Of a DNA stretch of 64,000 nt, positions 21,345 to 53,223 are shown one piece after another. Source of the stretch: Catajapyx aquilonaris (Eukaryota); the NCBI GenBank assembly GCA_000934665.2, contig KZ537999.1, forward strand, positions 248,001 through 312,000, in the 5' to 3' direction. Numbering within the stretch: position 1 is the first letter of the stretch; each line of letters starts with the position of its first letter. The translations under genes were made by a program, and so were the position numbers. Below the pieces are notes generated by a model. That model saw nothing but the letters and a program-made list of their open reading frames with translations, was not told the origin of the DNA and did not search any database.

Positions 21345-21953
21345 TCCAAATAATATTATTCAGAAGCATCAACACCTACATCTGACGAATTGTTCCTCAA
21401 ATTAATTATATACTGCATCCAGGGTAATCCACCTGCGATGGTCATGCAGGAAATATCTTGTTTTTATCTGGAGATAGGCTAATCGCAACGTCACACCTGG
21501 TTGCTACAGAAACAAGATAATAAGAAGTGTGGAATACCATTTGTCTACTTGGTAACTGTACAGGAGGTAGAAGTTTCGGAATAACAGTTTCATTTATTTC
21601 ACAGATCCAGCGCAGGATTTGGTCACTTGACACTGTGTCTAACTTGTCCTTTTTGTGTCTTTTAGGACATCTCTGGACCATTTTCTTGCAACTAATGGAT
21701 GCGACTTAGGGGACATACTTTTATCTCTCAGATTGCGAGATTTCTGCCACCACTATCCAAGTTATTTTTCAAGTGAAGTGAGTTTCAACTTGTTTTGTGT
21801 TTTTGTACTCGTTGCGTTGCCAACAACTAGCATTGGTATTCCCAGTCGCAAGATTTTTGACTGCCATTTTCTTCTACTTTAGAAGTACTGTACAGCATCA
21901 GTAATCGTGTGAGTTTTGAGTCTAATTGCTAAATTATTGTAGGCCTTAACTTG

Positions 21954-25100: not shown

Positions 25101-25475
25101 TTCCATGCGTATTACAACGGAATGCTTCACTTTAAATCGAGCGTTGACCAAGACAATAATGAAGCAGACGAGCCGAGGGAAAAGGCATTGTCAGTGATGC
25201 ATTGTGAAGCTAAGGAACTCCGGGAAAAGGAAGAATCGAAGAGAAGAAGTGACATTGCAAGGACAAAATTGGAGACTTATGTGTACAACGTCAAGCAGAC
25301 GGTGGAAGTTGACCAAAATTTGTCCACGAATATGAAGCAAATGGTGGAGAGTGCGTGCTGCCAGATGTTGGACTTCATCGAAGAAAACCCGCTGGCCACT
25401 AAAGACAACTTTGAATCTGAGCTGGAAACATTCCAAAAAAGGTTCGGTACATTGTTGAAGTCGACGAGAAAGTAA
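22192..25475 (+). CDS. Locus F: altered-NBD HSP70-like protein with linker, degenerate SBD and lid (~690 aa)
   Basis: Exons 22192-22410, 22488-23198, 24212-24749, 24817-24977, 25032(or 25038)-25475. Motifs [46 protein letters not shown]; lid ARTKLETYVY. Extra phase-1 intron 24750-24816 restores frame. Confidence 0.8.
23307..23887. mobile_element. MITE-like TIR element in intron 2 of locus F
   Basis: Left end GAGGCGTGGATGGGTAGAACTCGGTTTGTCCAAAA and right end TTTTGGACAAAGCGGTTCTTCCCATCCATC are imperfect inverted repeats; both flanked by AATT. Confidence 0.65.
23963..24053. mobile_element. Short Tc1/mariner-type MITE
   Basis: TA|CAGTGGTAAAAAATTAATGGAGAAGC...GCTTCTCCATTAATTTCCATCACTG|TA: inverted arms, CAGT termini, TA flanks. 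Confidence 0.65.
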
Positions 25476-30919: not shown

Positions 30920-32213
30920 ATGGAGCAAGTTTATTTACGTCCCAGGAAGCCAAAAGGGAAGACTAAAAAGGAAGATCAAATTGGAAATTTAGAGATCGAC
31001 ATGGCACGTGCACATGTTCATGATCGAGAAAAGACCAAATCACTCCATGAATACAAAATGTCCTTTGTTGAAGACGATCAAGAGGGAGGATGTTCCAGAG
31101 GCAAGAAAAGGTCAGGAACAATGCTGGAAGAAGAGGTCGAGGTCAAGAGGGCAAAGCTGTTCTCTCCAAGGAAGTATGCTTCATCTGGATCTGCCACTGG
31201 TAATCTTCATGAGTACAGAATAGCATTCGACATGTCTCACGACCAGTTGAGTCATGAATGCAGCTTAATAAAATTGGAGGATGATGTCATCGACAACAAG
31301 AGGCAGAAAAAAATTCCTCCAAAAAGAAAAAGGTCTCTAAGGTGTTACCAATCAGAAGGTCAGGGCATGGAGAAGAGAAGAAAGGTCGATATCGATGTAG
31401 TGGTGGATATCAAGTATGACGGAGGAATTGTGAAAATTTCAAAGGACAAACAGCTGATGTCCTGGAACAACGAAGTTACATGCGAAAAGAGGGGAAATCG
31501 TGTCAACGTCACCATGACTAGTAATTCATTGTTTTTTATGTAATCATAAAACTGCACTGCATATATTTAACTATTCACAGTCTCGTGCAGAACCAAATTT
31601 TAAATCAATAACATTTTAGTAAGTTTTTAGAATACTGTATGACTTTATAAATATTTGGCATTATCTATACAATTTAATATTTGCCTGGCTTACTTTATGC
31701 TAATTACATCTAATTACAGGGGGAGAAAGCAGAGAGGAGGAGAGAAGTACGCACGTCACGAAATATTCGGACCACACAACTGAATTAATCATCAGCGTCG
31801 ATGCTAACGGAATAATTGCCAATAAAGTTTCCAAAACACAAGCCAAAACAGCCAATGGCGAACGTAGCAAAGTAATTAGCGAAGATGACGCTGATGAGAA
31901 GAGGAACTCTGAATTGCTACAAATGCGAAATGAAGCGCAGAAATTTCGCGATAAGGAAGGAGCGAAGAGAGACAGAGATGTTGCCAAAACAAAATTGGAA
32001 TCTTACGTGTACGAAGTAAAGCAAGCAGTAGAAGAGGAATGTGATGTTAACGTTGTTTCCGAAGAAGAGAAGCAGAGTGCTAAAGATGAATGCACTAAAA
32101 TGTTGGACTATCTGGACGAAGACCAGCATGCTGACAAGAATGAGCTAAAATCTAATCTGAAAAAATTTAAAGAAATGTTTTCACATCTGTTGAAAAAGTT
32201 GGGCAAAAAATGA
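30920..32213 (+). CDS. Locus I: NBD-less HSP70 derivative (basic disordered region + degenerate SBD + lid, ~364 aa)
   Basis: Exons 30920-31520 and 31720-32213 (phase-1 GT-AG intron). Motifs VDIKYDGGIVKI, LIISVDANGII, AKTKLESYVYEVKQ. No NBD exon seen upstream. Confidence 0.75.
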
Positions 32214-32903
32214 GAGAATATCTGCAATAAAAATTATTTACGCCATTTTTCTACTTTCAGTTCGATTCGCAAAATGATCATATTTACTAAGTCCAAAGCA
32301 CGTTCTTCAATGATAGATTTTGGCTGGGTGAAAAATAACGTTTAGTTCGAAATAACATTGTGCAATAAGTTAGTATACTGTAATAGTGATTCCTGCCTGG
32401 CTGGATTTGAAAACAGAACATGTTCAGTTACAAAAAAAATTGCTTAGAAAGCATTGTAAACTACGTATCGTGCAAAATATAATTTCAACTGCTTAGGTAC
32501 AGTCTACCCTTATTGCCAAGAAATAGCTTATATAAGGTAATGTTTCGAAAAAAGCAGCAAGCCAATCAGACACAAGGAAGACAGCAGGAAATCCCTGCTA
32601 ATAAGATAATAATATTCTGACTAACGGTTTAGTCACATTGCTTTTAGAAGTAGCGCAAACACATCATGAGACCTTATCGTTATCTTATCCTACAGATATA
32701 TCCAACTGTGCGCAGTCCAACAACTATACCTAAGCACTGCAGGTTTCAAGGAGAGTCTGTCGTTATAATATTCAGCGACATCCGGAATAATTATAAGTAA
32801 GATTTTATTGTTACGTTTTCCTTCTGATGCGAGTAACATACCGTATTTGGTTCTATCTGTTCGTGATAGCTGTGTTGTCACTCCGATTAATTTTCAGTTG
32901 AAA

Positions 32904-35822
32904 ATGTCAAAGAAAGCGCCTGCTGTTGGGATAGACTTAGGCACAACTTTTTCCTGCGTGGCTGTCTGGCAACATGGAAAGGTCGAGATCATCCCAAACA
33001 GCCATGGGAAATTGGTCACGCCCAGTTACGTCGCTTTCACAGAAACAGACAGACTGATTGGTGATCCAGCCAAAGCACAGGTGAAATGGAATAAACATTG
33101 AAGTGCTTTCATAGACATTAATGGACCACTGCTTATTTATTAAGTCAAAAGGAGTTAGATCATATAATTATGAACAATATGATATAATTTTCGTCCCACT
33201 GCTAGTTACTGCTAACTTAGCAGTAACCATTCTCAACACTGGTACTGATAAGTTAGTAGTAACTAGCAGTGATATGAAAATTCCACCCATTGCCACTTTC
33301 CGTCTGAAGGTGACACATATACGTACATTGTCTGCTTAACCTTGTAATGTATGGAGCATTGTTGTTAATTATGTTGTTTGTGATTGTAATGTATGTAATG
33401 CATGGAGCAGTGTTGTTATATTTATGTTGATTATGTTTGTTTTGTCTCCATGCATTATCTGTAACTATAGTGAATCGTTATGGTTACCCTGGTGTGACTC
33501 ACACTTATGTTGTAGCAACATGGTCAAAACCGAGGTGTTAAATAAAAGTACTTTGGGCCTGTACAGGCAGTCGGTCAGCAGTCAGCGGCGAGTGAGGTTC
33601 TGCCCTCCTGAGCTGGCCCTTGACCCTACTCTCTGCCCGGTCCAAGTTGTATGAGCAAAGTCGTTGTTGTCATTTCTAAGTTACGGTACGGTATCGGTAC
33701 TGCTGGGTAATCGGTTGGTCCGCAGGGATCTGTACCACCAACCTTTTACCAAGTGGTAGCCGTATAAGACCTTCTAATCAGTTATACGATCAGGTCCGCA
33801 GGGATCTGTACCACCTGGTCGTATACTTCATTGGTGGCTGTCCGTACCCACAGACGAAGTGGACGAAGTGCTTCCCTCTCACCAGCCATACCAGGCTGGC
33901 GGAAGCCCGGACCAGGTCCGGTCAAGTGTCATACTGGCCGCACCCTCCCGTGTGAACAACTGTCCGTAAACCTGGCGTCACAACCTGAAAAGACAATAAT
34001 TAACATACTCATTGAACTCACTTCCTTTCAGGTGTCAGTTAATCCCGAAAACACAATTTTTGATGCAAAACGCCTGATTGGACGCACTTACGATGACCCA
34101 ATAGTTCAATACGACATCAATCTCTGGAACTTCAACGTGGTGAACGAGAAGAACAAGCCGCTCGTGGAGGTAAAACATGGAAGAAAAAAGTTGAGGTATC
34201 ACCCTGAAGAGATCAGCGCCATGGTTTTGGGCAATTTGAAGGAATCGGCCGAAAATTTCCTGGGCATGAAGGTGACCGAAGCAGTGGTGACTGTACCGGC
34301 TTACTTCAACGACGCCCAGCGCCAGTCCACAAGAGACGCGGGACTGATCGCTGGTCTAGACGTCCTCCGAATAATAAACGAGCCAACAGCAGCAGCCTTG
34401 GCCTACGGATTGGAGAAGAAGCTGAAGGAGGCCAACAACATTTTGGTGTACGACCTCGGAGGAGGAACATTCGACGTCTCGGTGCTGACCATCAAGGGCT
34501 CTCATCTGCGAGTACTGGCAGTTGCTGGAAACACACATCTTGGTGGGGAGGACTTTGACAACTGCCTCTTGGACTACTTTGTCGATGAGTTCAAGCGGGT
34601 TCATAAGAAGGACCTCACGGCACATCCGAAGTCACTGAGACGTCTCCGTACCGCCTGCGAGGAGGCCAAGAGGAATTTGTCTGGTGTGGCTGAGACAACA
34701 GTAGTGGTGGACAACATATGCGGAAATATCGACTTTGCTCAGAAGGTTTGTAACAATATGAGCTGTTGCTCTTCTGCAATGAAACACTAATCAGGCCTAT
34801 CATAAAGTAATCGATGTTTTATGCAGATAAGTCGGGCCCGATTTGAAGAATTATGCAAGGAATGGTTCAACCGGACACTGCGCACTGTCAAAACAGCATT
34901 GGACGATGCCCATCTGGACAAGAGTCAGATAGACGACGTAGTTTTGGTCGGTGGATCGACCCGGATTCCCAAGATACGTCAGATGGTGACTGATTTCTTC
35001 GACGGAAAAGAGCCATGCAAAAGCATACATCCGGATGAAGCTGTGGCTTATGGAGCAGCCATTCAGGCCGCGGCCATTACCATGGAGCAGGATAGAAATC
35101 AATACGGTGGCCAAAATGATAGCATCAGAGAAGTGGTGCTGGAAGATGTCACGCCTTTGTCTCTCGGGATCGAGGTCAGGGGAGGATTAATGTCCGTGGT
35201 CGTGGAGAGGAATACTCCTGTGCCATGCAGGATAAGTACAAGCTTTACAACCGTCTACGACTATCAAGACATGGTACACTTTCAGGTACAGTAGATCTTA
35301 CTTGTCGGAGTTAACCATTACTCATGTCTGCATTTCTTTTTCAAGATATACGAAGGAGAGAGAGTCATGACAAAGGGAAACAACCTCCTGGACTCTTTTA
35401 TACTCACTGGAATTCCCCCAGCACGCAGAGGCGTTCCTGATCTTAAAATCACCTTCGAGATGGACGCCGACGGAATTCTCCGGGTCAAAGCGGTTGATAC
35501 CTTCACGAAAAAAACTAGAAACGTGACCATAAAGAACGTGAAGGGCCGTCTCAGCGACGTGGAGATCAAAAGGATGATCCTGGAAGCTGAGAAGTTCCGC
35601 AAAGTAGACCAGAAGATGAAGGATACCGCAGTGGCCAGGACCAACCTGGAAAGCTACGTCTACGACTTGAAGGAAAAGATTTGTGACATGCCCAACAAGA
35701 GGGACCTGTTGCAGAAGTGCTACCAAGTTCTGGACTGGCTTGACAGCAACCAGAACGCGAAGAAAGAACAGTACGAAAAGCAGCAACGGAACCTCCAGCA
35801 GGTGTATGCCAATGTGAAATAA
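32904..35822 (+). CDS. Locus J: near-canonical HSP70 family protein (~608 aa, no EEVD)
   Basis: Exons 32904-33080, 34032-34745, 34827-35285, 35346-35822. All three HSP70 signatures; [20 protein letters not shown]. Confidence 0.9.
33343..33982 (+). mobile_element. Solo LTR (Gypsy-like) in intron 1 of locus J
   Basis: 640 bp with TGTAA...TCACA termini, 4-bp target duplication ACCT (33339-33342 and 33983-33986) and an internal AATAAA at 33541. Confidence 0.72.
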
Positions 35823-36102
35823 TAATCATCCTAATCTACAAACTGTAATATGTAACATAATAAAAAATGTATGCAATTACACATATTCCACAGCTGTATG
35901 TGACACAATCACTTAATAATGAAGAGGCCATCACACGTTTTAATACGAAATCAAATTGGCGATTTATTGCTGACAAACTCGAGTTTAATCCCAGTGTCTA
36001 ATTTTTATAACATAATTGAATGGAACTGACAGCACCGTTTCTAGTATGTTGTTGAAGGAGGTCACTTTTGTTGCATAAGTGCACTAAACTGCTGCTGCTA
36101 AC

Positions 36103-38422
36103 TCATATGTTCAATCTATGCATCAGGTTTTCAAACTCTTCCCTGAAACTGCGCAATTTCTCTTCAAATTGGGTTTTTTCGGCTTGTTCATTTTCGTATA
36201 TGAAGCACAACGCTTGGTCACAACCATCCTCCACTTCTTTCCTCTCTTCCTCAGAGACCAGGTTATCCTCTGCTGCATCATCCACAGAATGCTTTAGTTT
36301 GTAAACGCACTTTTCCAAAATTGTTTTGGCGACTTCTGTGTCCCTCTTCTTTGCTTCGATTTTCCGAAACTCTTGTAATTCATTCCACATTTTTGATATT
36401 CTTTGTACACCCGGGTCATCATAACATTTGTCAGGTACTCGCTTGGTCTGTCCTCGAAACACAGATTTGACGAGGTTGACCTCGAGGATTCCATTAGAGT
36501 TGACGCCGAAGATGATCTCAGCCACCGGATCCGAATGGGTTGTCTCTCTCTGGAATTATATAATATTAGTTATGTATAGGACTCACTTGAAAATTAAATA
36601 TGCTACTCGTTACTAACCGGCATTGTGATGTCAACGCGATTTATTTCCAAATCTCTGCTGAAAGTGATACATTTGTTGTAAGGAATCATCAATATGTCCT
36701 TAGTAGTGTGCAGAATGCCTCCGTCATACCAAATGTCCAAAGCGAACCTGACATCACTCTGTGTGTTGGCCGTCCTTTGCTCCTTTGCCAACATTTTTCC
36801 TTGCAAATTTCTGGAAGCGTTTTAAAAACATGAGGTGCGATTTTTCGCATTGTCATGGCAAGTACTTCCTTACCTCAACCTGCTACTGTCATGTGCGTCA
36901 GTGCCATGAGGGGTTTGTACTAATTTATTTGCAGTTAATTGGTACTGACTGATCGTCACGTTAGCTTTACCAGACTTGGAACCTTGGATTGGATTTGTTT
37001 TAGAACGTATCATGTGGACGGCTTCTTCAGGTCCTTTATTTGGTTCATGCAATCGTTTTTTAGTCCAAGCATTTACTTTCGATGATTTTATAATATCTTG
37101 AACCAAAAGTCCTTGAATAATGTCAGTCTCGTCGCATTTGATAACAGCCGCTTGGATCGCAGCCCCACGTACAGCTGGTTCTAATAGCTTCCCAAACTCA
37201 TAAAATGTCGTGTCAGGAAACAATTCTTGCACAACTTCACGTACTGTAGGAATGTAAGTTGACCCGCCCACCAAAAGAATTTGATTGATGTCCTTCTTGT
37301 CCAAATTGGCCCTTTTAAGAGCTTCGGCCACTTTCTCTATTGATCTTGATCGAAATAATTTATCGCAAATGTGTTTAAACTCTGTTGTAGAAATCTGCAA
37401 GGGAAAAGCAGGTCATGTCAATAAATCTTGGTCTCATGCAAAAACTGGCTGGAAATATTACCTTAACGATGAAGTCTTTATCATCATAAAACTTGTTCAC
37501 AACTAAAAAATAGTCGCTAGTGTCAATCAGATTTCGTTTAGCCTTCTCGCAGGCGCTTCGCAGTGTCGTCAATCTCGTCATGAGCAGTTTATCATATCTG
37601 TCAAAATTCAATGAATCCTTATTCTTTCCCAGAGCTAATTCGACCAGACACATGTCCAAGTCGATTCCTCCCATGCAGGGATCGCCAGATGTGGACAACA
37701 CCTGGATATTCAGTCCTTCTATTTCGACCACCGACACGTCGAATGATCCTCCTCCGAGGCTGTACACGAGGATGTTGCTCTTCTTCTGAGGTCTGGTCTC
37801 CACTGCATAGGCAATGGCGACAGCAGTTGGCTCGTTTATGAGATGAACAGTGTCGAATCCAGCGAGACTTCCAGCTTCTATTGTTGTCTGTCTCTGAGCC
37901 TCATTGAAAGAAGCCGGTACGGTCACCACTGCATCGGTCACCTTCGCTTTCAGAAAAGCTTCAGCAATGCCCTTCACCTTTTCCAATATCTTCGAGACGA
38001 GTTCTTGGGCGTTCAATGCCGGCTTTCCACCGATTTTAACAGCTGGTTGTGAGTCCTTACAAGTAACTTGAAATGGCCAAAACTGCCTAATTTTTTCGGT
38101 TTCACGGCAGAATTCGTCGTAACCTCGTCCTACCATACGTTTTAAATCAAACACTGTGTTTTTCATGTTCGGAAATTCCTGTAACAATGTTCGCGTATAA
38201 GCTTACTGGCTTGAATGCAAAAGTGTCAATAATAATGCTTGCCTGCTGCTGGTGGGAAGAATCTCCGTCGCAGCTGCCCTTTTCGGTGAAGGAAACGTAA
38301 CTCGGGTGAACTGTGCGTCCTTCTTTGTTTGGAATGACCTTGGCCTGACCTTCATGCCAGACTGCCACCCTGGTGTAGGTGGTGCCCAGGTCAATCCCAA
38401 TTATTGCGCTCTTCTTGTCCAT
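36103..38422 (-). CDS. Locus K: divergent HSP70-like protein ([12 protein letters not shown] + linker + degenerate SBD + lid, ~685 aa)
   Basis: Exons 38422-38243 (GC donor), 38178-37462, 37394-36874, 36810-36618, 36549-36103. Motifs [46 protein letters not shown]. Confidence 0.78.
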
Positions 38423-39505
38423 CGTGACCTACCGTAATAATTTTCACTATACAGAAAACTATTTGCGACCTTAAAATAATATAAGTTAAATATGAACAGT
38501 GTTACGCTATGATATGAAATAATTTCGCTACCGTACTCTAAGCATATCCATACGAAATAAAATAGTGCACTCACCTGAAGCAAACGGCTGATTTACCAAT
38601 TCCTCTGTATATCGCCTAGGCTGGAGTCGCCTCTGCATCAACTAGATAAGATTATCGCTAAGGTGAGTGAAAAATGGTTAGTGGGTGAATCATGAGACCG
38701 CAAACTTACTTTAACAAGTAATGATACTAATAATTAATTCTAGCCACAATAATTATGGCTAGAAATAATTGCTATAGTGTTATTATGGCAGCAATCATTA
38801 AATTGCTGTAATGGGTTAGTGTGCAAAAATAGGACATGTGCTATTGCCTCACAGCTTGCTTTTACCTGTTGTGGCCGTTTGAGGAGGTATAACGTTTCAA
38901 GTGATAATCTTATCAGCAGACTACAAAAAAAATCAGTCTTCCCATGGATATTGATTTAATTCTTTCTCAGCCAATATTTTCATACACATACCGCCATTTT
39001 AAAGTACCGGTAAATCATTTTTCCACCTCAGCTGCAATGATTTCCAATAATAAATATTTCGCCAAATGACCACGGGCCATTTCCAATTGGTAGTCACAGA
39101 TCTGTACTGGCCAACCTCTGGAAACACAATTCCAGAACTGCGTAGGTATCTCAGTACTTGGGCCACGTCAGTGGTTGTATGAAACATTTCTGGGTTAAGT
39201 GGAGGTCCTTTGAACTTCGACCATGGTCATGTTTGGTGGCCATAATATTATCTCATCATCATCGTAGGGCTTGTGGCGGGTGTAGAGTCAGTAGGAATTA
39301 TTGACGTGTTTTGGGGTCAACTCCTGGAATTGTTGCTGGCGGCTTTTGACTGATACAATCTCTTCCTTGCCCTTTGATGTGCACTCTACGTCTTGGAAAG
39401 CGTCTGTACTGCGTAGTAGAGTTATTATGGTCAATTAAATATAGACGGGATATGTGGTGGTGGGAATGGTACAGAACTCGGGCCACGTCAGTGCTTGGGT
39501 GAACC

Positions 39506-41965
39506 ATGTTCTGGTTGCCAGTGCTTCTCCTCTGCTCCGTGGCCATGTTCGGTGGCCACACCTCATCATCATCGTTGTCGGGTGTTGGGAAGAATGTGTC
39601 TCGTCTGATGGAAGATGAGAAGAGGAAGGTTGGGGAGGAAGGAGAGTGGTGGGCAGTGTCCAGACTGGTGAGGGGTGTCCTGGACACGAGAGATGACATG
39701 CGGGAATGCGGCCTGGTCCTGTCCACTGACCTCGTCGGGTCATCGGGCGTCTGGGAGGGAGTCTGGAAGCCGCTTCTCAAAAGTCAATCGGACCAGTACC
39801 TCCCGTCCTTCTCCCTCCAGATGACCACCTTTCCTTACTCCTTCCGAGACTACCCCTGTCTCAAGCGTCAATCTGACCTCTTGGACTTCACCACCGTCCC
39901 TCCTGAACTCCTCATGACCTACTCTGGGTGGTCATCCTCCCCCTGCACCCTCCACGTTCTCTTCCCCTCCTCCCCATCCTCTCTCCCTCAACTACTAATG
40001 TCCACTGCATTCAAGGTCAAGGTCAGTCCACTCGACGACCGTTTCATCATCCACTTCCCTCACCAGTCGATAGCACTCTCTGCAGCGGACAGAAAGGTCT
40101 ATCGAGTGTTGACCTCACCCCCTGTGAATGCCCTCAGGCTAAAAGTTTCCACCAGGATGGAAGAAGATGGTGTCATGAGGATGGAGACTGTCTGCTTCTT
40201 CTGCGCAAAAGGGGGTCAACCAATGGCGATCAATCTCGGCGGTGTTCTCCACGCGCACAAGCCAACAGTTGTCGGATTCTTCAACAACTATGACAAAAAC
40301 AAGCTGAACAAAGCACCATATGTGACTGGAAGTTACTTCAAGCCAATTGACATGGAGGACGCTCGAAGGAGAAGAAAACAAGTGGGACTGGTTAACTTTT
40401 TTTTTTTTTTTTTTTGTAATTACCCCGTAATGACCGTTTAAGGGTCTTGAGGGGGGTGGATTACCACCATCTCCTTCAATTTTCAACTTTTTCTTCAGAC
40501 TCCGGTGCAAGGAAGAAAGGACATGGGGAAAGGATAGGGATTTTTGGGGAGGGAACATGGGTGCAAGGTGCACGTCTGAATAACGGGTCATGTGCTGTTC
40601 CCCAGGAGGTTAGGTTGCCAGACACCTCCTTGGTGCAGGTCAGAGACCCTCCCGACGCAGGTGAAAGGATAGTTCCCCAGGCGGGGATCGAACCTGGGGC
40701 CTTTCACACAGCAAGCCGTGACGTTACCATCACGGCCACCACACCTCCCCGTGGGACTGGTTAACTTAGACTATTATGAAAGGCTCTACATAATGGGCGA
40801 GGAAGCGTTGAATGGTTTCATTTCGGAGATTTACGTGAAGGGGCCAACCAGTGCCGACTTCGACCTCAGGCTGGAAAACGGCACTTGGGAGGGCCTAATG
40901 CCAGATTTGTTGTCAGGAAGAGTGCATTCACTAAGTATAGTGATATTCACGGAGGACACATACCGACAAACATTCCTCGGGTATCCATTCGTTTTCGCAT
41001 ACGCTACATTCATGACCAGAAGACCCGGTGGCGTAATCAGCTGGAAGGTCATCTACAGGCCTTACGCCCTCCCCTTCTGGGTGTCCTTGGGGGTCACCCT
41101 CGCCCTTCTGCCGATTGCGATGAGCAGACTCTCCCGCTGCAAGACAGGTGGAGGGAGATCAGAGGCCGAGGAGGATTCCCTGACCATGGTAGGATCCCTC
41201 CACATCTTGACCAGCCACCTGATAGAACAGCCCGTTCCCTTCCCCAAGTCACGCCGCTTTCTTTTTCTGGCCGCATCCTTCCTCTTTCTCTCCACAGTGG
41301 TCATCACTGGCTACAAGGACAAAATGGTCGCCTTCCTGACCTTTCCTCCGAGGGAGTTTGTCCCGAGGAACTTCGGGGAACTGGCGGATTCGGATTGGAC
41401 CATCGAAACGGATATGATCAATTTTCTGATATGGAAGAAATTAATCTCCTATATTGACGATCCTCTCCACAACACATTAGATACGAAGATATCCATGGGT
41501 GTGAGTATACAGAGTTGCCTGGAAAGGATGCAGAGAGGGCGGTTCGTTTGCGCTGGTGCAAACCTGCTATTGGATCCGGAGATTTATCTATTTCGCGACA
41601 CTTCTGGGCAGCCAACATTCCAGTATTCTGATGACCACATATTTCCAACTGCCCTTGGGCCCGCTTCCCCACGGGGTCTAACCATGGGATATCACATCGT
41701 AAAGCAATTCATCCGATTTTTCAATGAAAATAACATGCTGTCAGTCTGCATGCGTGACTACATGTACCTGATGTTCCTCCGCTCGTTGGATCTAATCAGG
41801 GCCTGGGAGATTGGCGAACATGAAAAACCAAAGGAGTTTCTGACCTGGAAGAAGCTCTCGACCGTCTTCGCCATGTGGTTGGTGGGACTGTCCATTGCAC
41901 TGGGTGCATTCGCAGTCGAAATCGTGGGTCGCAAGGGTACAGTGTGTCTCAAGCAAAGGAAGTAG
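39506..41965 (+). pseudogene. Intronless divergent ionotropic receptor (IR/iGluR-like), interrupted by a SINE
   Basis: Signal peptide; S1-like ENGTWEGLMPDL; TFMTRRP...WKVIYRPY preceding TM1; further TM segments; S2-like VPRNFGELADS; final TM LSTVFAMWLVGLSIALGAFAVE. Removing the 369-bp insert plus one TSD gives a continuous 696-codon ORF (RRKQVGLVNLDYYER). Confidence 0.8.
40399..40750 (-). mobile_element. tRNA-derived SINE
   Basis: 17-bp TSD GTGGGACTGGTTAACTT (40382-40398, 40751-40767); on the minus strand A-box TGGCCGTGATGG, B-box GGTTCGATCCC and a poly(A) tail. Confidence 0.9.
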
Positions 41966-43059
41966 GGTGAGTGCCAGAAGATTGATATTAATATTAATAT
42001 TAAATGTGTCACTCACGCAGAGGCGAAGTGAGCGAGTTTCTTGTAAATGGAAATATAATCAAGGCACTTTTGTGTAATATTATTGTATGTGAGTTCTGTA
42101 CAATATTATTTTGTGTGAGTTGTGGCACACACTTGACAACTATACCACAAGAGAAAAATTAATATGAGCCTCCTTGTGTATATATGCCTGGGTTTATGTC
42201 ACCCAATTGAGTGTTGCATGTCCATTTGCACTCATGGAGAGAAGGAAGCTGGACTATACATGAAGGTTACATGAAAATGGTTATTTCATATAGCCTGCAT
42301 ATAACTTATGATGTTGCATTGGTTTATAGGATTTTATTGTAAAATTACGTACCAAATGTCGAAATATTTCACAAATACGAATACTTCAGTTTTTTTTGCA
42401 TTTGTGTGTGTGGCATTTTAGGATTGGGGGAACTCATTTTCTCACAAAATTTCTTGATCACTTAGGTTCAATACAACAACACGTAGCCAAAATCACAGTC
42501 GTCATCAAAGCTACTGGTTGTGGTTTATTAGCGAAAATATGCTCCTAATAATTTTCCTCAGCTTCGACATTGGTAACCTGACTCCTCTTTCTCTAAAGTT
42601 ACTCTTTATTTTGCTGTCGCAATTAGTAATTCTAACTCCACTTATGTAACTCCGTGTGACTGTAATATCGATCCTTTGTTGCATGCTTTGTTGTGTCTCA
42701 TTTCACAAGCCCTGCACATGCACAGTTGTACTAACGTGGCAGTATTAATCAATAAAGACATGGAGGGAAGTGCCACTTATTCATTTAATACCGGCCCTGC
42801 TTTTGTTTACCTTCCTCACTTTCAGAAGAGTGCAGAATGAATATTATTAATCTCGTGGAGAAAAAATGTCTTCGACGACTGATTAAGGTAGCAGAATGGT
42901 GGTTTCAGCTAGGCCATGGGACTTTAAAATAATTCAGGCGAGGGAAGAAGGTAGTGCGCTCCCTCTGGCAGACAGCTTTTCACCACCACAATAATTATGC
43001 AACTTGTACAGTACAGTACTGATTTTCGGTATGCTAATGCATATACGTGCTGGATGCGT

Positions 43060-43170
43060 GGATAAATGTGAGGAGGTGCTGGAATGGCGTGAGTTCAACA
43101 AGGACGCGGATGCGAAGGAAGTGGAGTCCTAACAATGGAAGTTGGAGAGGGAGTACTCCAGGATGAAATA
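43060..43170 (+). pseudogene. Relic of an HSP70 3' end (D/E-like)
   Basis: Translates as KCEEVLEWREFNKDADAKEVES*QWKLEREYSRMK*, matching the D C-terminus [34 protein letters not shown]. Confidence 0.78.
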
Positions 43171-44636
43171 ATTAATTTTTTAAAATGTGTGACATGTTTT
43201 TAAGGCGTTTAAGAAGGGAAGCAAAACGACAGACATGTTGACATTTTGTCACATTTAAAAAATAAACAGACAGTATCCTAAGGGAGGGAATATACTTGGC
43301 CTTTGGCAATTTGTACGGAAGAGTAATGCTACGCGACAGTCCAATTTTTATTACCTGATCCCTTTTGGTTCAAAGCGGAGTTAAATCTGGTCCCTATGTG
43401 AACAGCAAATGCCTTAGGAAAAGGCAAGTGTGGGGCAGCAGATAAGCAGTACTTGGCTTGTTCTGGGAGAAACTAGATTTTTTAAAAGTGTACGTATTAC
43501 GCTTCAGTATGTCGCGAGTGAATGAATGGAACAAGTGTGTTTAGGTCACTGTGACGTCCTAGCTGTCAACTCATCAGGGTATGGGCCTCCCCAACACTAG
43601 GTAATTAAACCATGATGTTGCCAATCATTTCTCATTTCTTGCAGGTTGCGTAAATGTTACGTGTTTGACCTGACCTTGAACCAGATTCTTACATACATGA
43701 TTCGCATTTCTCCACCGACACATTGCCTTGCAAAAAAATTTGGTACTATGATCCAGCTGACCTGGTTAATTTCCTGTTTGTATAATAATTAGAACCTGCA
43801 ACGAAAAGGGCGTTCGATACATGCTCGCTGTCACGTGTTCCCTTTGACTGGATCATATTGGAAAGTGAACAATGGACGTGCAGTACTGTACAGTACCAAG
43901 CCATCTTACAACTTATTAATCAAGTGAAATATAATGATTTTCTAGTAAAATTTAGGCCTATTTTAAAATAACATTTTAAATTAAGGTCCATTTAAAGTTC
44001 ATTCAAATTGGTAAGAATGTTCTATTATTCCCATTGAATGTATTACTCACTATTGCTGTACATACTTCCCACAATAAATATTATTGTCCTTTTAGAACCA
44101 CTCGCTTCTTAAAATTGTTAATTGTTCACTGTTTCTGACAAATGTTTTCCATTTTATGCTATTTAAATGTAAGTACGCGTATAGGTATTTGCGTAATGTT
44201 CAAAATTGGATTCGAATTGATCAGTCGAAATATTAATGTGAGCATTACTTACATTATTTTGAAGTGTATGGTGGTGGCCTTGGAATGTTTTGATGGAAAT
44301 TACCTGTTTGAATAATAATATTTCCAGAGTGCAAGATTGGTGAGTTGTAAAATGTTTCATTATTACTTTTAACTGAGAGTGACATCAAAAATAATTAGGA
44401 ACTAAATAAGCATTTACTTAACATTGACAGTTGTCGGAAAGTAATTTTTGTTACTTGCAACCTGCCTTAATCTTTAAATGTGACACCATAATCAAGTCTG
44501 GCATATAAATTCCAAATTGAGGAATAAATTCATTTCAATTCTGAAATCGGCTCAGAAATGAAAGTGCACCTTGCGATATCGTGTGTTTGTGAATTTGTGC
44601 ATGTTAAAATTATGTTAACATTAAATAGGCGTACTG

Positions 44637-44975
44637 TGGGGAGACGGAGTGGCGCCGTGGCAACGCGTGCGCCCACGGAAGTTAAGGTCCCGGGTTCAAT
44701 CCCCACCCGGGGTTCCCACCTTCTTTCGTGCAGAGTTGGGCCATCTCTGGCTTCGTTTCGGGTGGCAATTTCCGATAGACTAAGCCACCCGGGGGAGTTC
44801 ACAAAATGACCAATTACCGACAGCGCACATGCACTTTGCACATCCCCTCCTAACTACCTGGAGTATACTAATAAGATTATTCTTAACTCGCTCCAAAAAA
44901 AAACAAATACCAATGGTGGTAATCCACCACCCCCTATAGACCTACAAAGGTCATCACGGGGTAAGTAAAAAAAAA
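44637..44975 (+). mobile_element. tRNA-derived SINE
   Basis: TSD AGGCGTACTG (44627-44636, 44976-44985); A-box-like TGGCGCCGTGG, B-box GGTTCAATCCC, poly(A) tail; 3' tail similar to the SINE at 40399. Confidence 0.85.
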
Positions 44976-45675
44976 AGGCGTACTGGTTTTAATTAGTTTA
45001 TCATATCAATGTATACGGCATGCCTGTCGTGCCGCTATCGATCTTGTAAATAAGTTAGACGTAAGGCCCGTATGTAAGAGTCATGTGCAAGAAGTAAAAA
45101 AGTGTGGGGCCGATTTTTCCTGTCTGTTAAGAGCTAACGGTATTAACGAAAATAAATTTTTTATATGTTTGAACCGTTACAAGTGCGGATATCAGAGTGT
45201 CAATACACAGCTCAAGCATCAAGACAGCCATGGCAACAAGATAAAGCCGGTGGAAGACATTGCATGTACTCTTCAAAGCATTCCGATAAATAGAACTTGT
45301 AATCAAACGACCATTCCAGAGAAGGCCACGCTCACAACATGAGGTTGATGGTGTCCATGAAGACTCTGATGGTGATCATTCAAGTTTGGGTCCAATAATA
45401 CACAAGTAACACTTGAGGTAAGAAAAGACGTTTCACAAAATTATGTACACCTCTCATGTATAATATTGCTGAAGAAATTTTTATGATTTCCGTTGCCAAA
45501 TGTACACCCACTTTAAACCAATTCCTGAGTTCATACTGTATTTTTTCTGTATCAATAAAAATATTCTTAAACAGAGTCTTGTGGTTAACTTTAATATTGT
45601 TTACTTACAAATCATGGGCAGTTATTATGATGTTATTTTTTATTGCTCACTTGTCGACGAAGATTTTGGACTCCC

Positions 45676-48600
45676 ATGGCTGGTGAGAGGCCTCCAGTGG
45701 TTGGGGTCGACCTGGGCACATCCGAGTCCAGAGTAGCAGTGTGGAAAGATGGAAGAGTTCATATTATTCCAGACTACCACACAGGAAAGCAAGCTACACC
45801 CAGTTATGTGTCAGTCACTGATAACAATATTTACATCGGAGAACGCGCCAAGGAGAAGGTCCGATGTGCCCCATTTAATAATCGAGAATGTTAACTAAAC
45901 CGAGTTCATTTACAGATGGGTAGGAATATGAAGAACACGGTGTTTGGCATGAAGCGTCTGACTGGACGAACAAACGACGATACTCTTCTACCAACGTACA
46001 GGTGTCACTGGCCGTTTAAAGTTTCAGTGACGTCTGGAAAAGCGCAAATTGTGTTACAAATCGAGGGAGAGCAGCGAGTGTTTAATCCAGAACGTATCAT
46101 GTCCTGGGTGCTGTCAGAAATGATGGAAAATGCGGATAATTTCTTAGGACTGCATGTGACCCATGCTGTAATGACGGTGTCCACTTATTTCAACGAGGCT
46201 CAACGAGAGCAAGCGACAAGAGACGTCGTGGATATGGCCAGTGTTAGCTTGTTACATGTCATCGACACTAGCACTGCTGCAGCTATTGCCTACTGCTTTC
46301 AAAAAAATTTAAGAGACGCCGGCTATGTACTCGTTTATGATATTGGCACATACGCATTCGAAGTGTCCGTGCTACTTGTGAGAAACTTTACTCCCATTAT
46401 GGTTGTGAGTGACAATAACGATATTGTGGGAAGCGAGAACTTTGATCGACTCATAGCAGACCTGTGCTTGAAGGAAATTTTGAAGAAGTATAACCTGGAC
46501 TTGAGGTTTGATGCTAAGGCGATATCAAAACTCCTTCCTGCTTGTGAGGAAGCCAAGAAAACTTTATCTGTCCAGAAAGAGGCAAATATATTTGTGAAAA
46601 ATCTCTTCAAAGGTCGCGATGTCACTTTTAAGGTATGGCTTCGATAGTTGCTTTTAAGTCACGTTATAACAACATCAATGTTTCTTGCATTATGCAAGGT
46701 ATCATTTTCACGGCATTCACTCAACTCGATATAATTATTGATGCATGTGTTTGCTATTGATTGTTTATTTGTGTTTCAGATTTCGCGACAGCTTTTTGAA
46801 GATCTGTGCTCAGATATGATCAGCACAACATTGAGTGTAGTGGACCGTGCGCTGTGGACGGCCAGAATAGACATGAGGCAAATAAAGCACGTGGTTCTGG
46901 TGGGTGGCTCGACCCGAATACCAAAACTGAGGGAAATGGTTAAGGATTACTTCAAAATGGAAGACCTGGACCAGTGCATTGAACCAGAGGAAGCGGTTGT
47001 GTACGGAGCCGCTATTCAAGGCGCTCTCTTAAATGGAAGTATAAATATCGAGGGCGTTTGGCCATTGATTAACATGAAGATGACACCAGTGTACTTCCCT
47101 GTTAGTAAATTTTTGGCACCAAATATTATCAGCAACGAGGAAGTGCCAACTGTCAGTAGCAGACATGTGCATGACTATCCTCACAACAAGAAACAGAGGA
47201 ACAGGGCGAAAGGAAGTTTTGAGGGCAGTAATAAATATGACCAGGTACACGACAATAGCAATCCGCAAGTGTCCCACCAATATCAGACTTCTTTTGCTGC
47301 AAAAGAACAAGATAGTGGTAGAAGTATTAAGATTAATGACGAATCGTTAAAGTCACCAGAGCAAGTAGAACAAACCCAGCCCAGTCACACCGATTTTAGT
47401 GACAACGCTAGATCAGGATATGTGGGTCATCTAGAAAATGAATTGCATCAATACCGACTAAGGTCTGATAATTTACTTGACGGAATTCACAGCAATTCTA
47501 TCACAGACGCAAGGAAACTGGAGGAAACTGCTGACAATAAGGGAGAGTTTAGAAACATCACTAGTCGGAGAAATGAGAGTTCACGAAGACACCAACAGTT
47601 AGCTAAGTACACTGAAAGCAGCAGCATTAACAATCCCGTGAAGGTCACGAAAAACAAGGCTGCGCCATTAGACGGGATTCGTCAGAAATTAGCGCATGAC
47701 ATATCCCAAAAGGAGTCTATTAAAAAACACCGACCAGCTATAAATTCCGAAGCCAAGGGTAAAAGTGTCAAGAGCGATCAACGAAAGCATGAACCTGCTC
47801 ACATTGCAAGAGATAAACGCAAGCACGGAGCAATCGGAAAGTCTAAAAGAACACATGTTGACAAAAAGACAGCTGAAATTAAAATTCTCAATGAAGGCAA
47901 CACTACTCATCATCCTAACAAGTACAGCCACTTGCACCAGTACCGACTACATGCTAACGAATCGCATAACCAGTTTTATGAGGATTACATATCAGGCAAT
48001 GGTATATTGGAAACGACGGGTAAAAGTGTCAGAAGAACCTCCCCCGAGATAACTAGCGTTCCAGGTAGCCCCGAAATTGATGTGGTCAAGAACAACGCCG
48101 AAATAAGGGATTATATCAGTTTCAAGTTGGACATTAGGTATGAAGGGGGCATTCTGCATATTCCAAAGAAAAATATGACAACCCCTTCCAGCAAAGATAT
48201 GTGGTGCATGAACTTGGGAGGAAACCTTGTCAGCATCACATTACCTGTAAGTGACGCATAATTTTTTATCCTCCTAACACAAGATGAATTATTTCTGTAT
48301 AATGCCATAGACAATATTCACATCCTAGTACTACCCCTTCCCCTTTATTTAACCTGGATTTGTCTTTCAGAATGCAACATCATTCGTTACAAGCCTCTTA
48401 TTCCACCAGCCGCATATTGATTTATTATGCTTAATTGTATATTATGTTATTAAATTTCAGGCAAGGACATTCAAGACTGGAAAGAATGACTCCACTAGAT
48501 CGGAGAGCAAGGTTGGCCTCACTCTCAAAATCGACGCCAACGGAATTATCGACATCAAATCACCAGATCAACGCAGTGTGAAGTTAGCCAGCAATCGAGA

Positions 48601-48898
48601 TGTGTCAGAAATGCGGAAAGAACTGCAGACATTTCGGGACAAAGAAGTGACGATTAAAAATAGGGACGTGGCCAAAACAAATTTGGAGAACTACGTGTAC
48701 AAACTGAAGCAGGCCGTGGAAGACGAATCAGTTGGCACTAAAGTGTCGGAAGAAGAGAAGAAACGAGTGAAGGACGAATGTGAACGAATGTTAGACTTTC
48801 TGGATGAAAACGACATGGCCGAAGAAAGCACATTTGTTTCTGCGCTGCAAGCGTTCAAGAAAATGTTCCGACCATTGGTTCGGATTTTGATAAAATAA
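45676..48898 (+). CDS. Locus M: altered-NBD HSP70-like protein with ~350-aa disordered linker, degenerate SBD and lid (~934 aa)
   Basis: Exons 45676-45858, 45916-46632, 46780-48246, 48461-48898. Motifs [63 protein letters not shown]. Confidence 0.83.
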
Positions 48899-50043
48899 TC
48901 TATGGGAATCAATGTTAGAGTTTTTACCGGTTCGCTGCCAACAAAATTATTATGTTTTGCTTAATAAAAAGTACATTAACTCATTTCAAAAACAATACCA
49001 AAATGTATGCCGCATAGTTAATGTATAGTTTTGTATTTGTGACAATAGTGGCAACATCTTCAATGATTCAATAATACAGTGTATCATTGGGGCGCAACGG
49101 TAGGATAAATCCAAGTCAGGAATAACTGCCATACATTACTATCAGCGCATATCACTTGATAGTCTGGTGATAAACGTACATACAAATGCACTTGTCACGA
49201 GTTCTAAAACAAAGCGAAGCGGTCATTCCGTGACAGTTCGTTGCTTAATCAGCGTTGGACGTTAAGGTAGAGGTTATTAGCTGAACACCCATGTTTGGAG
49301 GCACATTTGAAGGGATGTGTGCTTTTCCCTCTGCCGATACTCTTCTTAAGAGAACCAAAAACCGAGAAGAGGCAGCAAAATAATTTTGATTGATTGTCCA
49401 CCACACCACTTTCTAAAGAAATTCATTGACAGGTAAGAAATCTTTCATTCATACATAACATCTGCTCAGTTTCCCAGGGTAAAAATTAAGATAATTTCGA
49501 GCCAAATTGCCACAGAAGAAGCCGGAAGCATTTTAAAAATACTCGTGTTTAGTAATGTTTTTTTTAAAAATTATGGACAAAATTTATTTCACAAATTGCC
49601 CAGTACAATAAATATCAATGGAGTAAATGTGTGTGAATGATTCATTGTCCGGTTTTGATGGTTGTCACATTCTACAAACAGGATTGTACCGAGCCAAATT
49701 TATTTTATGAAAAATAATACTTACTTTTCGTTAACAAGAAGGTAGTAAAAAAACCTTAGCATATAATTATCTTATTATTGCCAAGAAAAAGTTGCGCCAA
49801 AGTTATCCTATGTGCCTCGTTCTCTGGCCACATAAATTTGAAAAAAACTGAAAATCTTCCAGCGCATTAGCGATATGTTTGAGTAGCTGAACCTCCCCGC
49901 TTTTAAACCAATCCTCATGAATTTCCCTGTTTTTTTTCCAGTGATTTTATGCTCGGATTCATGAGTAACTTGAGGTGAAGAAAGTGGCTGTCCGAGGAAA
50001 TTGCTTTGCTTGAGCCTTTGTAAATTAGGCCTACGACAAATTA

Positions 50044-50418
50044 ATGGGGTCTATTTCGCAATACTTTTTGAGCAAAGCGAGAGGATGTTACGAATATTTT
50101 GTTGGCTTATTGTATCGCATCAGAAAAAGGAGCCAAGAGTCAGAGGAAAACAGGAAGTCCTCTTTGGATCATGACCACCGAGAGAGCAGTCTTACCAACG
50201 AGCAACGAACAAGTACGCCCCATGAATATCATCGTTCATACGTCAATCGCACATCAGATAAGCACCAGAATACTGGCCCCAACAGAACAGAAAGGATCCG
50301 AAACCAGGACGACAAAGGTGCAAGATCGGATTCTGCTGATTCTGGGGAAGACATTTTTCAATACAGACGTTCCTATCCCAATTCAAGTGCACAATTACAT
50401 GGTAATCAGTCCCGCTAA
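50044..50418 (+). pseudogene. Locus N: truncated paralogue of NBD-less locus O (linker only, 124 aa)
   Basis: Ends FQYRRSYPNSSAQLHGNQSR* versus O FQYRHSYPTSSAQLHDNQPRKG; upstream 49275-49438 resembles 51124-51235. Could alternatively be a real small protein. Confidence 0.6.
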
Positions 50419-51393
50419 GAGTATGTTTTTGATACCACGCAGGGTATTTTTCTAACATTTTATTCTCACCTGTCGAGGTATTTTTTTGAAATTTTCTTCC
50501 TTCTTTGTACTCACAGCGTTCTCTTTTTATACAGATCAAAAAATAATTCTGTAATAAAGTTTATGCTAACAACAACATTTACACTACCTCCCCCTTCCAC
50601 ACACACCCGTCCTGATTGTTGACTGTGTGCAGTTGGCAAATATTCCAATGTTATAATATTGTAACTACTGTATTTGAATAACCTGTCGACGACAAACAAA
50701 TAAATAAATAAAATAATTCAATTAGAAGCAGAGCTATATTTAAATCGATATAAACTCGATTTATAAACACTGTATGGAAGCAGAAGTATAGGCCTACTCC
50801 AAGTCAGAATGATATTCGTGGTAGAAGGATGCGTGTAGTCCGCGTACAACAATGGCAACATATTGAAAGATGCAACTAAATAAAATTTATCGGAGCAGGA
50901 AAAGCAGTCGTTTTTTTAAATTTATCAGCAATGGCACGGTGGGATTCATGAACGTTAGAAATAACTGCCTGTTATTATCAGCCAGTATCACTCTTTTATC
51001 TGATAAAGATGCACTCGAATGCCATGGCTACGAGTTAATGGAACAAAGCAAAGCATGTGAAAATCCCGACGTCATTCCATATGTGTCCTGGTTGGTTAAC
51101 CAGCATTGCCGTGAAGATGAAGCTTATTAGCTAAATACCGGTGTGGGGAGGCCAAAAACTGACGAGAGGCAGCAAAATAATTGGGATTGGTTGGACACCA
51201 CACCATGTTCTGAAGAAACTATCCGACAGGTAAGAAGCATCCTAATTAATTTGGAATGAATTTTTGTGCATCATACGCACCATAATTCTAATTAGTGTTT
51301 GCTTCACATTTCAGGGGTTCGTGAGGGACAAAAACTGAATGAAGTTGCAGTCGGAGGAGTGTCTGCTTGACCGTGTATAAATAAGGACGCAAA

Positions 51394-52576
51394 ATGGCAT
51401 TTGTGTCAAATTTTTTTACTATTAAAGCAAAAGTAGCAGTAGATTTTTTTAACAAAGCAAAAGAAAAATTTGAATCATGGTCGGATATATTGGATGGTAC
51501 AACAGAGCCTGTATATGGTGTGGTATACAGGAGTTGTCCTTTTCATTATGTCTTTGTTGAGAGAAGTACCCATCAACAACGTCCCCCTTCCCAGGATTAT
51601 CGTAGCTGTTACGTCCAACCCACATCACCACGACCGGATGACCACCAACAACGTCCCCCTTCCCAGGATTATCATCACAGCTACGTCCAACCCACATCAT
51701 CACGACCGCATGACCACCAAAATCTTCACACTTACAGATTAGAATTTGCCCAAAGCAATGCCAACCAAGGCAAAAGACCGAGTTCTGCTCCTGCTGCTAG
51801 AGAGAACCATTTTCAATACCGACATTCCTACCCCACTTCAAGTGCACAATTGCACGATAATCAACCACGAAAGGGATGTTTATCTCTCTTCATAAATTAC
51901 AAGGCAGGCATATTAAAGATTAGCACAAAAAATCTCCAAAAGCCCTACAAAAACATCACGTACGCTAATTGTAGAGGAGATCCTGCCAGAATCACTTTGC
52001 CTGTAAGTATAATTTCACGTTTTATAATTAATTACATTTACGGGACAAACATCGTCACATCAGCGACATGCATGACCATAAACTCACTCTAGAACCTAAA
52101 CATTAACAATAATGTAACTTTTATTGTTGCAGGTTGACTACCTCACATCGTCCCGTAGCACTGATGACATAATTTTCAGCGTCGACGCCAAATGTTTTCT
52201 GGACATAAATGTTCGCGGGACATCTGGCGTTACAAGCCTGTGCACAGACGACAAAGCCAGGGACAGGAAACTGGCTGAAATGTGGAATGTGCTAGACACG
52301 TTTCGAAAAAAGGATGAGGTGAAGAAAAAGAAAGATGCAGCCAAAAGATACTTGGAGTCTTTCATTTACAACCTGAAGCAGGCCATGGAAGGAGCACCAG
52401 AGGATGTTCTGCCGAAAGGACAGAAGGAGGAAGCAATTAAGAAGTGCAATAAAATGTTGGACCTTCTAGAGGAATGTGACAATCTGGAAGACGAAATGTT
52501 CAAACGTGAGGTGGAAGATTTTAAGGCAACGATGGTACCCCTAATGGAAAAGTTAGGGCGTTCCTTGAATCAGTAA
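51394..52576 (+). CDS. Locus O: NBD-less HSP70 derivative (repeat linker + degenerate SBD + lid, ~350 aa)
   Basis: Exons 51394-52002 and 52133-52576. Motifs LFINYKAGILKI, IIFSVDAKCFLD, AKRYLESFIYNLKQ. Confidence 0.77.
51571..51720 (+). repeat. 72-bp coding tandem repeat (2 copies of a 24-aa unit)
   Basis: HQQRPPSQDYRSCYVQPTSPRPDD / HQQRPPSQDYHHSYVQPTSSRPHD. Confidence 0.93.
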
Positions 52577-53223
52577 TTGGGGGGCAGCAGGAATCTGCTA
52601 CGACAAATGTTTCATCCAGCGAAATATCATAATATTGTAACTATTATATAATTTTCTGTCAACCGCATCATTAACCAAATAAACAGATTGAGGTAACATT
52701 ACAAGCAGAGGGATATTATTATTTTTAAACATGCCTGTCTCAGTATCTTCCAATCAAGTTTTCCTACAACCAGATATATAAATCCATAATTATATACAGC
52801 TGGACAACAACGTTTCCGGCGATTCCATGCTTCTCAGTCGTTACAAATACGACCCAGAATAATTTACGTACTGTACCGGTACGTTATGTAACATATTTTG
52901 CAGTAGATGGCGACACTCCTGCACCAAGGCCTCTTAGAATAGATTGCAGTCAGATTAAGTATGATTAGTTGCTCTACAGGTGATCAGTGAGGATAAAGCA
53001 AAAGGTACGAGCTCGCCCATAATGGCCACATGACCTTCCCTTTTCTATTTGCAACTCGTTTCAAATCTAACAGCATTTGACCTTGTCATAATATGAAAAT
53101 ATCATAAATGGAATATCAATGTGAATATTGTTTGCATGTTGCAGAAACAACGAGCCATAATAAATAGTTGAAAACCTATACAAATGAATTCAATCATATA
53201 CTAACTGCATGAATATTAACAGG

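Follow-up and report, generated by a model that had tools for sequence, protein, structure and literature searches.

Why should a short tyrosine-centred peptide recur in the linkers of neighbouring HSP70 genes while the residues around it have drifted almost beyond recognition? The question is raised by a 64-kb stretch of the Catajapyx aquilonaris genome (GenBank assembly GCA_000934665.2, contig KZ537999.1, positions 248,001 to 312,000 of the forward strand), which was analysed at its full length of 64,000 nucleotides and is called the window below; all coordinates are counted from its first letter. The sequence is eukaryotic, with open frames broken into exons, and tblastn with the four exons of a canonical-looking gene, J (32769–35822), revealed a tandem array of approximately 17 HSP70 paralogues, distributed over both strands. 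Among them the recurrent peptide forms a module of two islands at the place where HSP70 normally has its hydrophobic interdomain linker. As judged by sequence comparison this module descends from one ancestral linker, and it is tentatively proposed here as a docking motif for HSP70-type peptide-binding domains.

The paralogues, which are referred to by letters, sort into three groups. The canonical type comprises A2, D, E, G, J and Q, and R is truncated by the window end. In the diverged type (B, C, F, K and M, and also A, which seems to end after its nucleotide-binding domain, NBD) a polar insert of 89–361 residues follows the NBD in place of the interdomain linker. The remaining group (I, N and O) is NBD-less, running from an ATG straight into the polar insert; tblastn found no NBD exons upstream of these three genes, and in the case of I there was no match between 28845 and 31797. 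Gene P (53239–54729) has a related linker signature without a detected last exon and was left unclassed. Contigs of run X5, for which the kind (RNA or DNA) is unrecorded, skip five GT..AG or CT..AC intervals, and contigs of the DNA run X1 do not. One X5 contig joins exon 1 of gene O (51411–52002) to 52133–52678 across a GT..AG interval, and another (49974–50686) covers gene N, with a GT..AG joint from 49429 to 49939 upstream of it.

All 14 peptides listed in the initial annotation were found again, in open frames and at their listed places; they are the island rows of Table 1 other than the decayed island A of gene B. The copy number of one to four per gene was likewise confirmed, as was the polar and disordered nature of the linkers, the disorder being that predicted by AlphaFold2. 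The tyrosine is invariant and has a neighbouring basic residue in 13 of the 14 instances, and other tyrosines in the same linkers do not have this context. In a motif-blind star alignment of eight linkers (B, C, F, I, K, M, N and O) no shared block scores higher than that of the motif at widths of 6, 7, 8 and 9 residues. Its score was reached by 1, 0, 0 and 0 of 100 composition-preserving shuffles, respectively (z = 3.6, 5.2, 4.0 and 5.4), and the motif is thereby enriched over shuffled linkers. Weight matrices were also trained without the gene under test, N and O being held out together, and were compared with 2000 shuffles each. The listed site was the top match in six of the eight linkers, namely those of I (p = 0.0005), M (p = 0.0005), O (0 of 2000 shuffles), C (p = 0.0045), K (p = 0.011) and B (p = 0.016); in O the score of the additional copy between the two islands was reached by 0 of 2000 shuffles. 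No motif was detected in the F linker (p = 0.75). In the N linker the matrix chose a different, N-terminal site (p = 0.037); N and O thus have, in their [HR]-S-Y copies, a sub-type that is not learnt from the other genes.

Of the 87,600 positions in the six frames of the window, the nine used for training score 17.5–25.0 and the best of the rest 13.2, and within the window the module is confined to HSP70-derived genes. Weak off-target matches of the matrix at 15252 (−) and 20586 (+) were dismissed; the first falls in a repeated element that is not HSP70 and the second in a frame of low complexity, next to the letter N at position 20656. We know of no catalogued short linear motif class that resembles the islands, and nothing was found in the literature searched on such a motif in HSP70 paralogues, in keeping with the earlier remark that it was not recognised as a described one.

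How are the copies related to one another? The flanks had been described as polar and as unrelated between genes. The former holds, 62–77% of the residues being polar, charged, Gly or Pro, but the latter does not: 8 of the 28 linker pairs give local alignments with p ≤ 0.02 (that is, they beat at least 98% of shuffles) which are anchored on the motifs. Several linkers align weakly over about 70–130 residues with the two islands in register. In I versus M about 130 residues align with both islands in register, the score being 93 where the null gives 36.6; I versus N and N versus O likewise align with two copies in register, and gene I has an extended island A in common with C and an extended island B in common with B. 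Island A approximates [LF]-H-[EQ]-Y-x-x-S-[FY] and island B x-[HF]-Q-Y-R-[LI], which Q-L often follows about ten residues on, and in the five genes with both islands the spacing from A to B is 45–57 residues. According to the multiple alignment, I, M, N, O and C have island A, which has decayed in B and which K has lost; island B is carried by all of these genes but C, which has lost it. The islands are the two best of the 41 eight-column windows in the module alignment, with mean BLOSUM62 scores of 1.55 and 1.35 against a median of 0.36.

Extra copies are found in M, which has a third one of B type, and in O, which has a tandem duplication of island A and one copy more; F has none. The third copy of M precedes beta1 by 61 residues, just as island B does in gene I. 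The duplication in O (51571–51714, +) involves a 24-residue unit, HQQRPPSQDY..YVQPTS.RP.D, and doubles island A. Because the linkers align with the islands in register, most copies in the different genes occupy the same ancestral site and are not independent recurrences. By this comparison, most of the recurrences are one ancestral pair of sites seen in paralogues, with a few recent internal duplications. At the level of sequence the alignments demonstrate that the module was inherited from one ancestral linker and retained as peptide while the spacers decayed.

The depth over which it was retained can be estimated from the NBD exons. In the six pairs that A, C, F and M make up, identity is 44–53%, with a synonymous divergence (dS) of 1.3–1.8 and a ratio of nonsynonymous to synonymous divergence (dN/dS) of 0.20–0.36; this set leaves out all seven pairs involving B, which has an in-frame stop, and six pairs with saturated dS. 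By these estimates the carriers are old duplicates under constraint. At such a depth the spacers are nearly devoid of likeness and the islands keep four to six of eight residues. From one instance to another the residues L, H, E, Y, R, S and F are encoded by different synonymous codons, which argues that what has been conserved is the peptide and not a nucleotide element or the product of recent gene conversion. The linkers still lie in long open frames, of 508 codons in M, 394 in B and 322 in C. Gene I has its donor after beta4 shifted by one base in comparison with M, O and C (ACT A/GTAAT versus CCT/GTAAGT; 31505–31722, +), and the acceptor compensates for the shift, with the intron in phase 1 and the frame kept, which is a sign that this gene is maintained as a coding gene. 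The two tyrosine-centred islands seem to have been kept by selection. They have the general character of short linear motifs, being islands conserved (among paralogues) in a disordered, fast-evolving region. The AlphaFold2 prediction for the module is disordered (predicted template modelling score 0.12; mean predicted local distance difference test score, pLDDT, 56.7), with its only pLDDT peak on island A (72 for block 41–50, the one ten-residue block above 70); that for the whole of exon 1 of gene I was unusable (mean pLDDT 37.9).

The module lies at the exact chain position of the canonical hydrophobic interdomain linker. The linker/beta1 signature LEDV-x-P-x-SLG is carried by A2, G, J and Q, the four canonical genes in the alignment, in which D and E are not included; in the same alignment it is absent from the seven diverged genes, which have unrelated polar residues there. 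Downstream of the module follow degenerate but recognisable strands beta1–4, with a conserved aromatic residue before a Gly-Gly turn. In every gene an intron divides the sandwich domain, and the last exon comes after it. A segment of 10–15 columns, which holds NNLLDSF-LTGIPPAPRG in all six canonical last exons, is gapped in all seven diverged ones (B, C, F, I, K, M and O). We name the missing segment beta5 and loop L5,6 from our reading of the alignment and from a description of human HSP70 (PMC4110032), which puts beta5 at the end of the sheet beta5-beta4-beta1-beta2 and has the peptide cleft braced by loops L4,5 and L5,6.

Profile searches leave the family membership of these genes clear. 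Pfam PF00012 (HSP70; cut-off 20.6 bits) is matched by the NBD-end exons of M, C, B and K with E values of 2.1e-25 to 3.7e-16, the match in the M exon at 46774–48246 being confined to residues 12–107, and by the last exons of M (33.3 bits) and I (30.8 bits); the last exon of O, at 19.9 bits, is just under the cut-off. No Pfam family is matched by those frames of I, N and O that contain linker only. Five ATPase patterns, which we take to be those of phosphate-1, the catalytic Lys, the catalytic Glu, phosphate-2 and adenosine, were scanned as regular expressions: J, D, E and Q match all of them and A2 and G four, R being truncated by the window end. The catalytic-Glu and phosphate-2 patterns have no match in A, B, C and F, although a miss of this kind is not proof of loss of activity. 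Gene M is altered at the same two places (VIDTSTAAA and YDIGTYAFEV), and K has Ser for Asp in phosphate-2. A C-terminal EEVD, which database HSC70s have, is present in none of the 13 last-exon translations; the canonical-type paralogues A2, D, E, G, J and Q also end without a Gly/Pro-rich tail or EEVD. HSP70 allostery requires that the peptide-binding sandwich be complete and that a short hydrophobic linker connect the domains. By profile the diverged genes are members of the HSP70 family which fail the linker, the complete sandwich and the EEVD of canonical allosteric HSP70s; the ATPase signatures are probably a fourth canonical feature that they fail, and the diverged paralogues may be ATPase-dead.

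What, then, might the module do? The most likely reading in our opinion, although one that we hold tentatively, is that of a docking motif which forms a strand and is received, in trans or in cis, by an HSP70-type peptide-binding domain, with the descent described above as part of it. In a diverged, lineage-restricted subfamily of HSP70 the disordered insert has taken the place of the hydrophobic interdomain linker, and it also heads the three NBD-less relatives. Each island would fold into a short beta-strand on binding; since the islands alternate as H-x-Y-x-aliphatic-x-F/Y, the conserved residues (H, Y, the aliphatic and F/Y) would come to lie on one face of the strand. Docking would be to some peptide-binding site within the HSP70 system, most plausibly the sandwich of a paralogue in trans or that of the same chain in cis, much as an HSP70 substrate-binding domain (SBD) holds the normal interdomain linker or a pseudo-substrate, and the presence of one to four copies would lead to tethering or self-assembly. 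A partner in trans is pointed to by gene N, which keeps the module without any HSP70 domain. Docking is ranked highest on account of this gene, the position of the module in the linker, its confinement to HSP70-derived genes and the published binding of linkers and pseudo-substrates. When the I module (residues 30–115) and the two halves of the sandwich and lid of I itself were predicted as separate chains, without alignments or controls, the interaction score from aligned errors (ipSAE) was 0.01–0.02, which speaks neither for nor against docking. We might go further and imagine the diverged subfamily as a self-contained assembly system, not driven by ATP, in which the beta5-less sandwiches are completed or loaded by the tyrosine islands of the family. 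Its carriers would include the NBD-less I and O and the arm-only N, and copy number would set the valency of a scaffold or condensate, but so comprehensive a scheme strikes us as very doubtful.

Orthologues were sought by several routes. The M linker gave no match at E ≤ 0.001 among 1804 candidates in a search of longer proteins, and exon 1 of O none at E ≤ 0.01 among 132 candidates. The NBD exon of M had 763 matches at E ≤ 1e-20 among the longer proteins, and the best 120 of these were all generic HSP70s with at most 43% identity. A profile of seven diverged lids matched 2551 of 1.84 billion representatives; 13 of the best 150 matches were inspected and proved to be canonical HSC70s, fusions or multi-lid proteins, and a loose motif pattern occurred in four of the best 150, three times within the lid. 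A metagenome scan with a four-gene NBD profile yielded four loci, at 26–33% identity, and an atlas search for relatives no usable match. Four of the proteins matched by the lid profile (P0121, P0122, P0138 and P0149) have 7 to 19 tandem HSP70 lid-like helical units, which in some such proteins come after a normal HSP70 body; this architecture is unrelated to that of the window.

Several observations weigh against docking. No orthologue from any other organism was found by these routes, so that the conservation rests on paralogues of a single locus. Over the 73-codon module the recent duplicates N and O differ almost neutrally (dN/dS 0.80), and the module is dispensable in part, F having no copy, K no island A and C no island B. 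The main NBD exon of B (6207–6905, −) holds one in-frame stop, which would be explained if the gene were a pseudogene or had a further intron at that point. Island B has no peak of AlphaFold2 confidence, and the [HR]-S-Y copies that the matrix of the other genes missed may be a different thing. The missing orthologues, the lost islands, the N–O ratio and the stop in B, together with the ATPase patterns unmatched in A, B, C, F and M, would suit a young and partly pseudogenising array in which the islands are simply the slowest-decaying remains of the ancestral linker, without present function. Such residual homology is hard to reconcile with islands that keep half or more of their residues, in varied codons, at saturated dS and stand out as clear outliers of the conservation profile, with the long open frames of the linkers or with the purifying selection on the NBD exons, and we consider it unlikely. 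A function towards some partner other than an HSP70 would also account for the invariant tyrosine and its basic neighbour, for the several copies in polar linkers, of which those of I and M abound in basic runs, and for the presence of the module in N. The tyrosine could be phosphorylated and read, the peptide could be a client site for a J-protein, or aromatic and Arg residues could act as condensation stickers. We doubt this as well: conservation at positions −2, −1, +2 and +4 around the tyrosine is more specific than a generic sticker calls for, the other linker tyrosines do not share the context, and within the window only HSP70-derived genes have the module.

It had also been suggested that the peptide could complete the degenerate sandwich. 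The deletion of beta5 and its loop in all seven diverged genes provides that idea with a concrete seat: an island, in cis or from another molecule, would be inserted beside beta4 as the missing beta5, and would be a structural part and not a ligand. The place of beta5 at the end of the sheet, with bracing loops, in the human protein (PMC4110032), the co-occurrence of module and gap in six of the seven gapped genes and the alternation of aromatic and aliphatic residues in the islands are all consistent with this. Sequence likeness of the motif to beta5, however, was not detectable. Profile–profile comparison (hhalign) of the module with the canonical last exon gave a probability of 0.07%, a beta5 profile missed the islands in eight of eight linkers (its best p, 0.049, was in M beside island B), and the island profiles missed beta5 in 12 of 12 scans. 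Moreover, F has the gap without the motif, N has the motif without a sandwich, and one to four copies for a single gap exceed the need of a structural part. Completion of the sandwich by an edge strand is accordingly a rather improbable role for the islands. The notion that the module is a decayed copy of beta5–beta8 was rejected, as a claim of homology, on the same hhalign value and on reciprocal profile scans, which were not significant.

Table 1. Positions of the modules, their islands and the exons that carry them, with the diverged paralogues that deviate from the ATPase patterns (window coordinates)
Feature	Position	Strand	Content
Gene I exon 1	30920–31519	+	Start ATG, disordered region (islands A and B), degenerate beta1–4 (31373–31519)
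I island A	31043–31066	+	LHEYKMSF
I island B	31205–31228	+	LHEYRIAF
Gene I last exon	31722–32210	+	beta6–8 and helical lid, without the beta5 segment; Pfam HSP70 E = 1.2e-07
Gene M, whole	45682–48895	+	
Gene M exon	46774–48246	+	NBD end, 361-residue linker, then degenerate beta1–4 (48097–48246)
M island A	47272–47295	+	SHQYQTSF
M island B	47443–47466	+	LHQYRLRS
M third copy	47932–47955	+	LHQYRLHA, B-type
Gene N	50044–50418	+	124-residue open frame: N-terminal hydrophobic segment and module only, without HSP70 domain
N island A	50218–50241	+	PHEYHRSY
N island B	50353–50376	+	IFQYRRSY
Gene O exon 1	51394–52002	+	ATG, N-like N-terminal segment, four-copy linker, degenerate beta1–4 (51865–52002)
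O island A, first tandem copy	51589–51612	+	SQDYRSCY
O island A, second tandem copy	51661–51684	+	SQDYHHSY
O extra copy between A and B	51724–51747	+	LHTYRLEF
O island B	51808–51831	+	HFQYRHSY
Gene O last exon	52133–52573	+	beta6–8 and lid; Pfam HSP70 19.9 bits
Gene K exon	36873–37412	−	NBD end and linker; island A lost
K island B	36953–36930	−	ISQYQLTA
K next exon	36761–36618	−	Degenerate beta1–4; X5 joint 36549 to 36618 (CT..AC)
Gene C exon	8332–9207	−	NBD end, linker with island A, island B lost, beta1–4 at 8463–8332
C island A	8676–8653	−	FHEYTISF
Gene B exon	5261–6118	−	Linker with both island sites, then beta1–4 at 5404–5261
B island A, decayed	5707–5684	−	ITEHSFSF
B island B	5569–5546	−	PNQYRLVA
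Gene F linker exons	24203–24781 and ~24846–24977	+	Same architecture and beta5 gap, zero motif copies
Diverged paralogues with ATPase pattern deviations	874–2224, 4608–7133, 7779–10373, 22219–25472, 36106–38422, 45682–48895		

The coordinates are collected in Table 1. Since the frame of N ends right after island B, this gene encodes the arm alone. Ahead of the module N (50044–50130, +) and O (51394–51480, +) share an amphipathic-looking N-terminal segment, M-x-x-[IV]-S-x-[YF]-F-x-x-K-A. The array is broken up by a 430-codon open frame (40673–41965, +) that is unrelated to HSP70. Two further open frames (15073–15423 and 21442–21705, both −) contain a near-identical stretch, VSSDQILRWICEINETV-PK-LPPVQ, and constitute a repeated element between the HSP70 genes. 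Contig depth in the bins 40038–41371 and 44040–45373 is very high in both runs, X1 and X5, as in high-copy repeats.

What appears to be new at this locus is a lineage-restricted, HSP70-derived subfamily in which a conserved two-island motif module replaces the linker. The subfamily gave up the linker and the complete sandwich, and apparently much of the ATPase signature, yet it keeps long open frames, and N and O, two of its NBD-less members, are covered by contigs of spliced appearance. Should the islands bind HSP70-type domains, the locus would be a natural case of a chaperone fold turned into a scaffold of motifs and receptors, and would offer a defined peptide with which to probe what a degenerate SBD still recognises; should they bind something else, a new docking motif would have been defined.

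How does this compare with known systems? The subfamily resembles canonical cytosolic HSP70 in its NBD, its degenerate beta1–4 and beta6–8 and its helical lid, and differs from it in being without the linker signature, beta5 and EEVD, in the unmatched ATPase signatures of A, B, C, F and M and in having three members without an NBD. In chaperone-usher pili the incomplete beta-sandwich of a subunit is completed by a donor strand from a disordered extension of the same or another chain; the likeness to such complementation holds only if the islands act as edge strands, and fold and biology are unrelated. Another comparison is with the disordered pseudo-substrate release domains of the exchange factors HspBP1 and BAG, which are reported to bind the same substrate groove (PMC9346034). 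They share with the putative arrangement here the use of short, client-like disordered segments which together with a second contact give multivalency, but they sit on exchange factors and not on HSP70 paralogues, and the part of that report available to us describes no shared sequence motif. A further parallel is the engagement in trans of the interdomain linker, a short hydrophobic segment which is reported to be held as a ligand by the SBD of a neighbouring HSP70 or BiP protomer (PMC3696110; PMC4608358), with oligomers or self-inhibition as the result. In the window the linker signature is gone, its place is taken by a disordered insert of 89–361 residues with two tyrosine-centred islands in one to four copies, and the candidate receiving domain is without beta5. 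The module nevertheless lies at the same position between NBD and SBD, and by analogy with these proteins it would be a built-in ligand.

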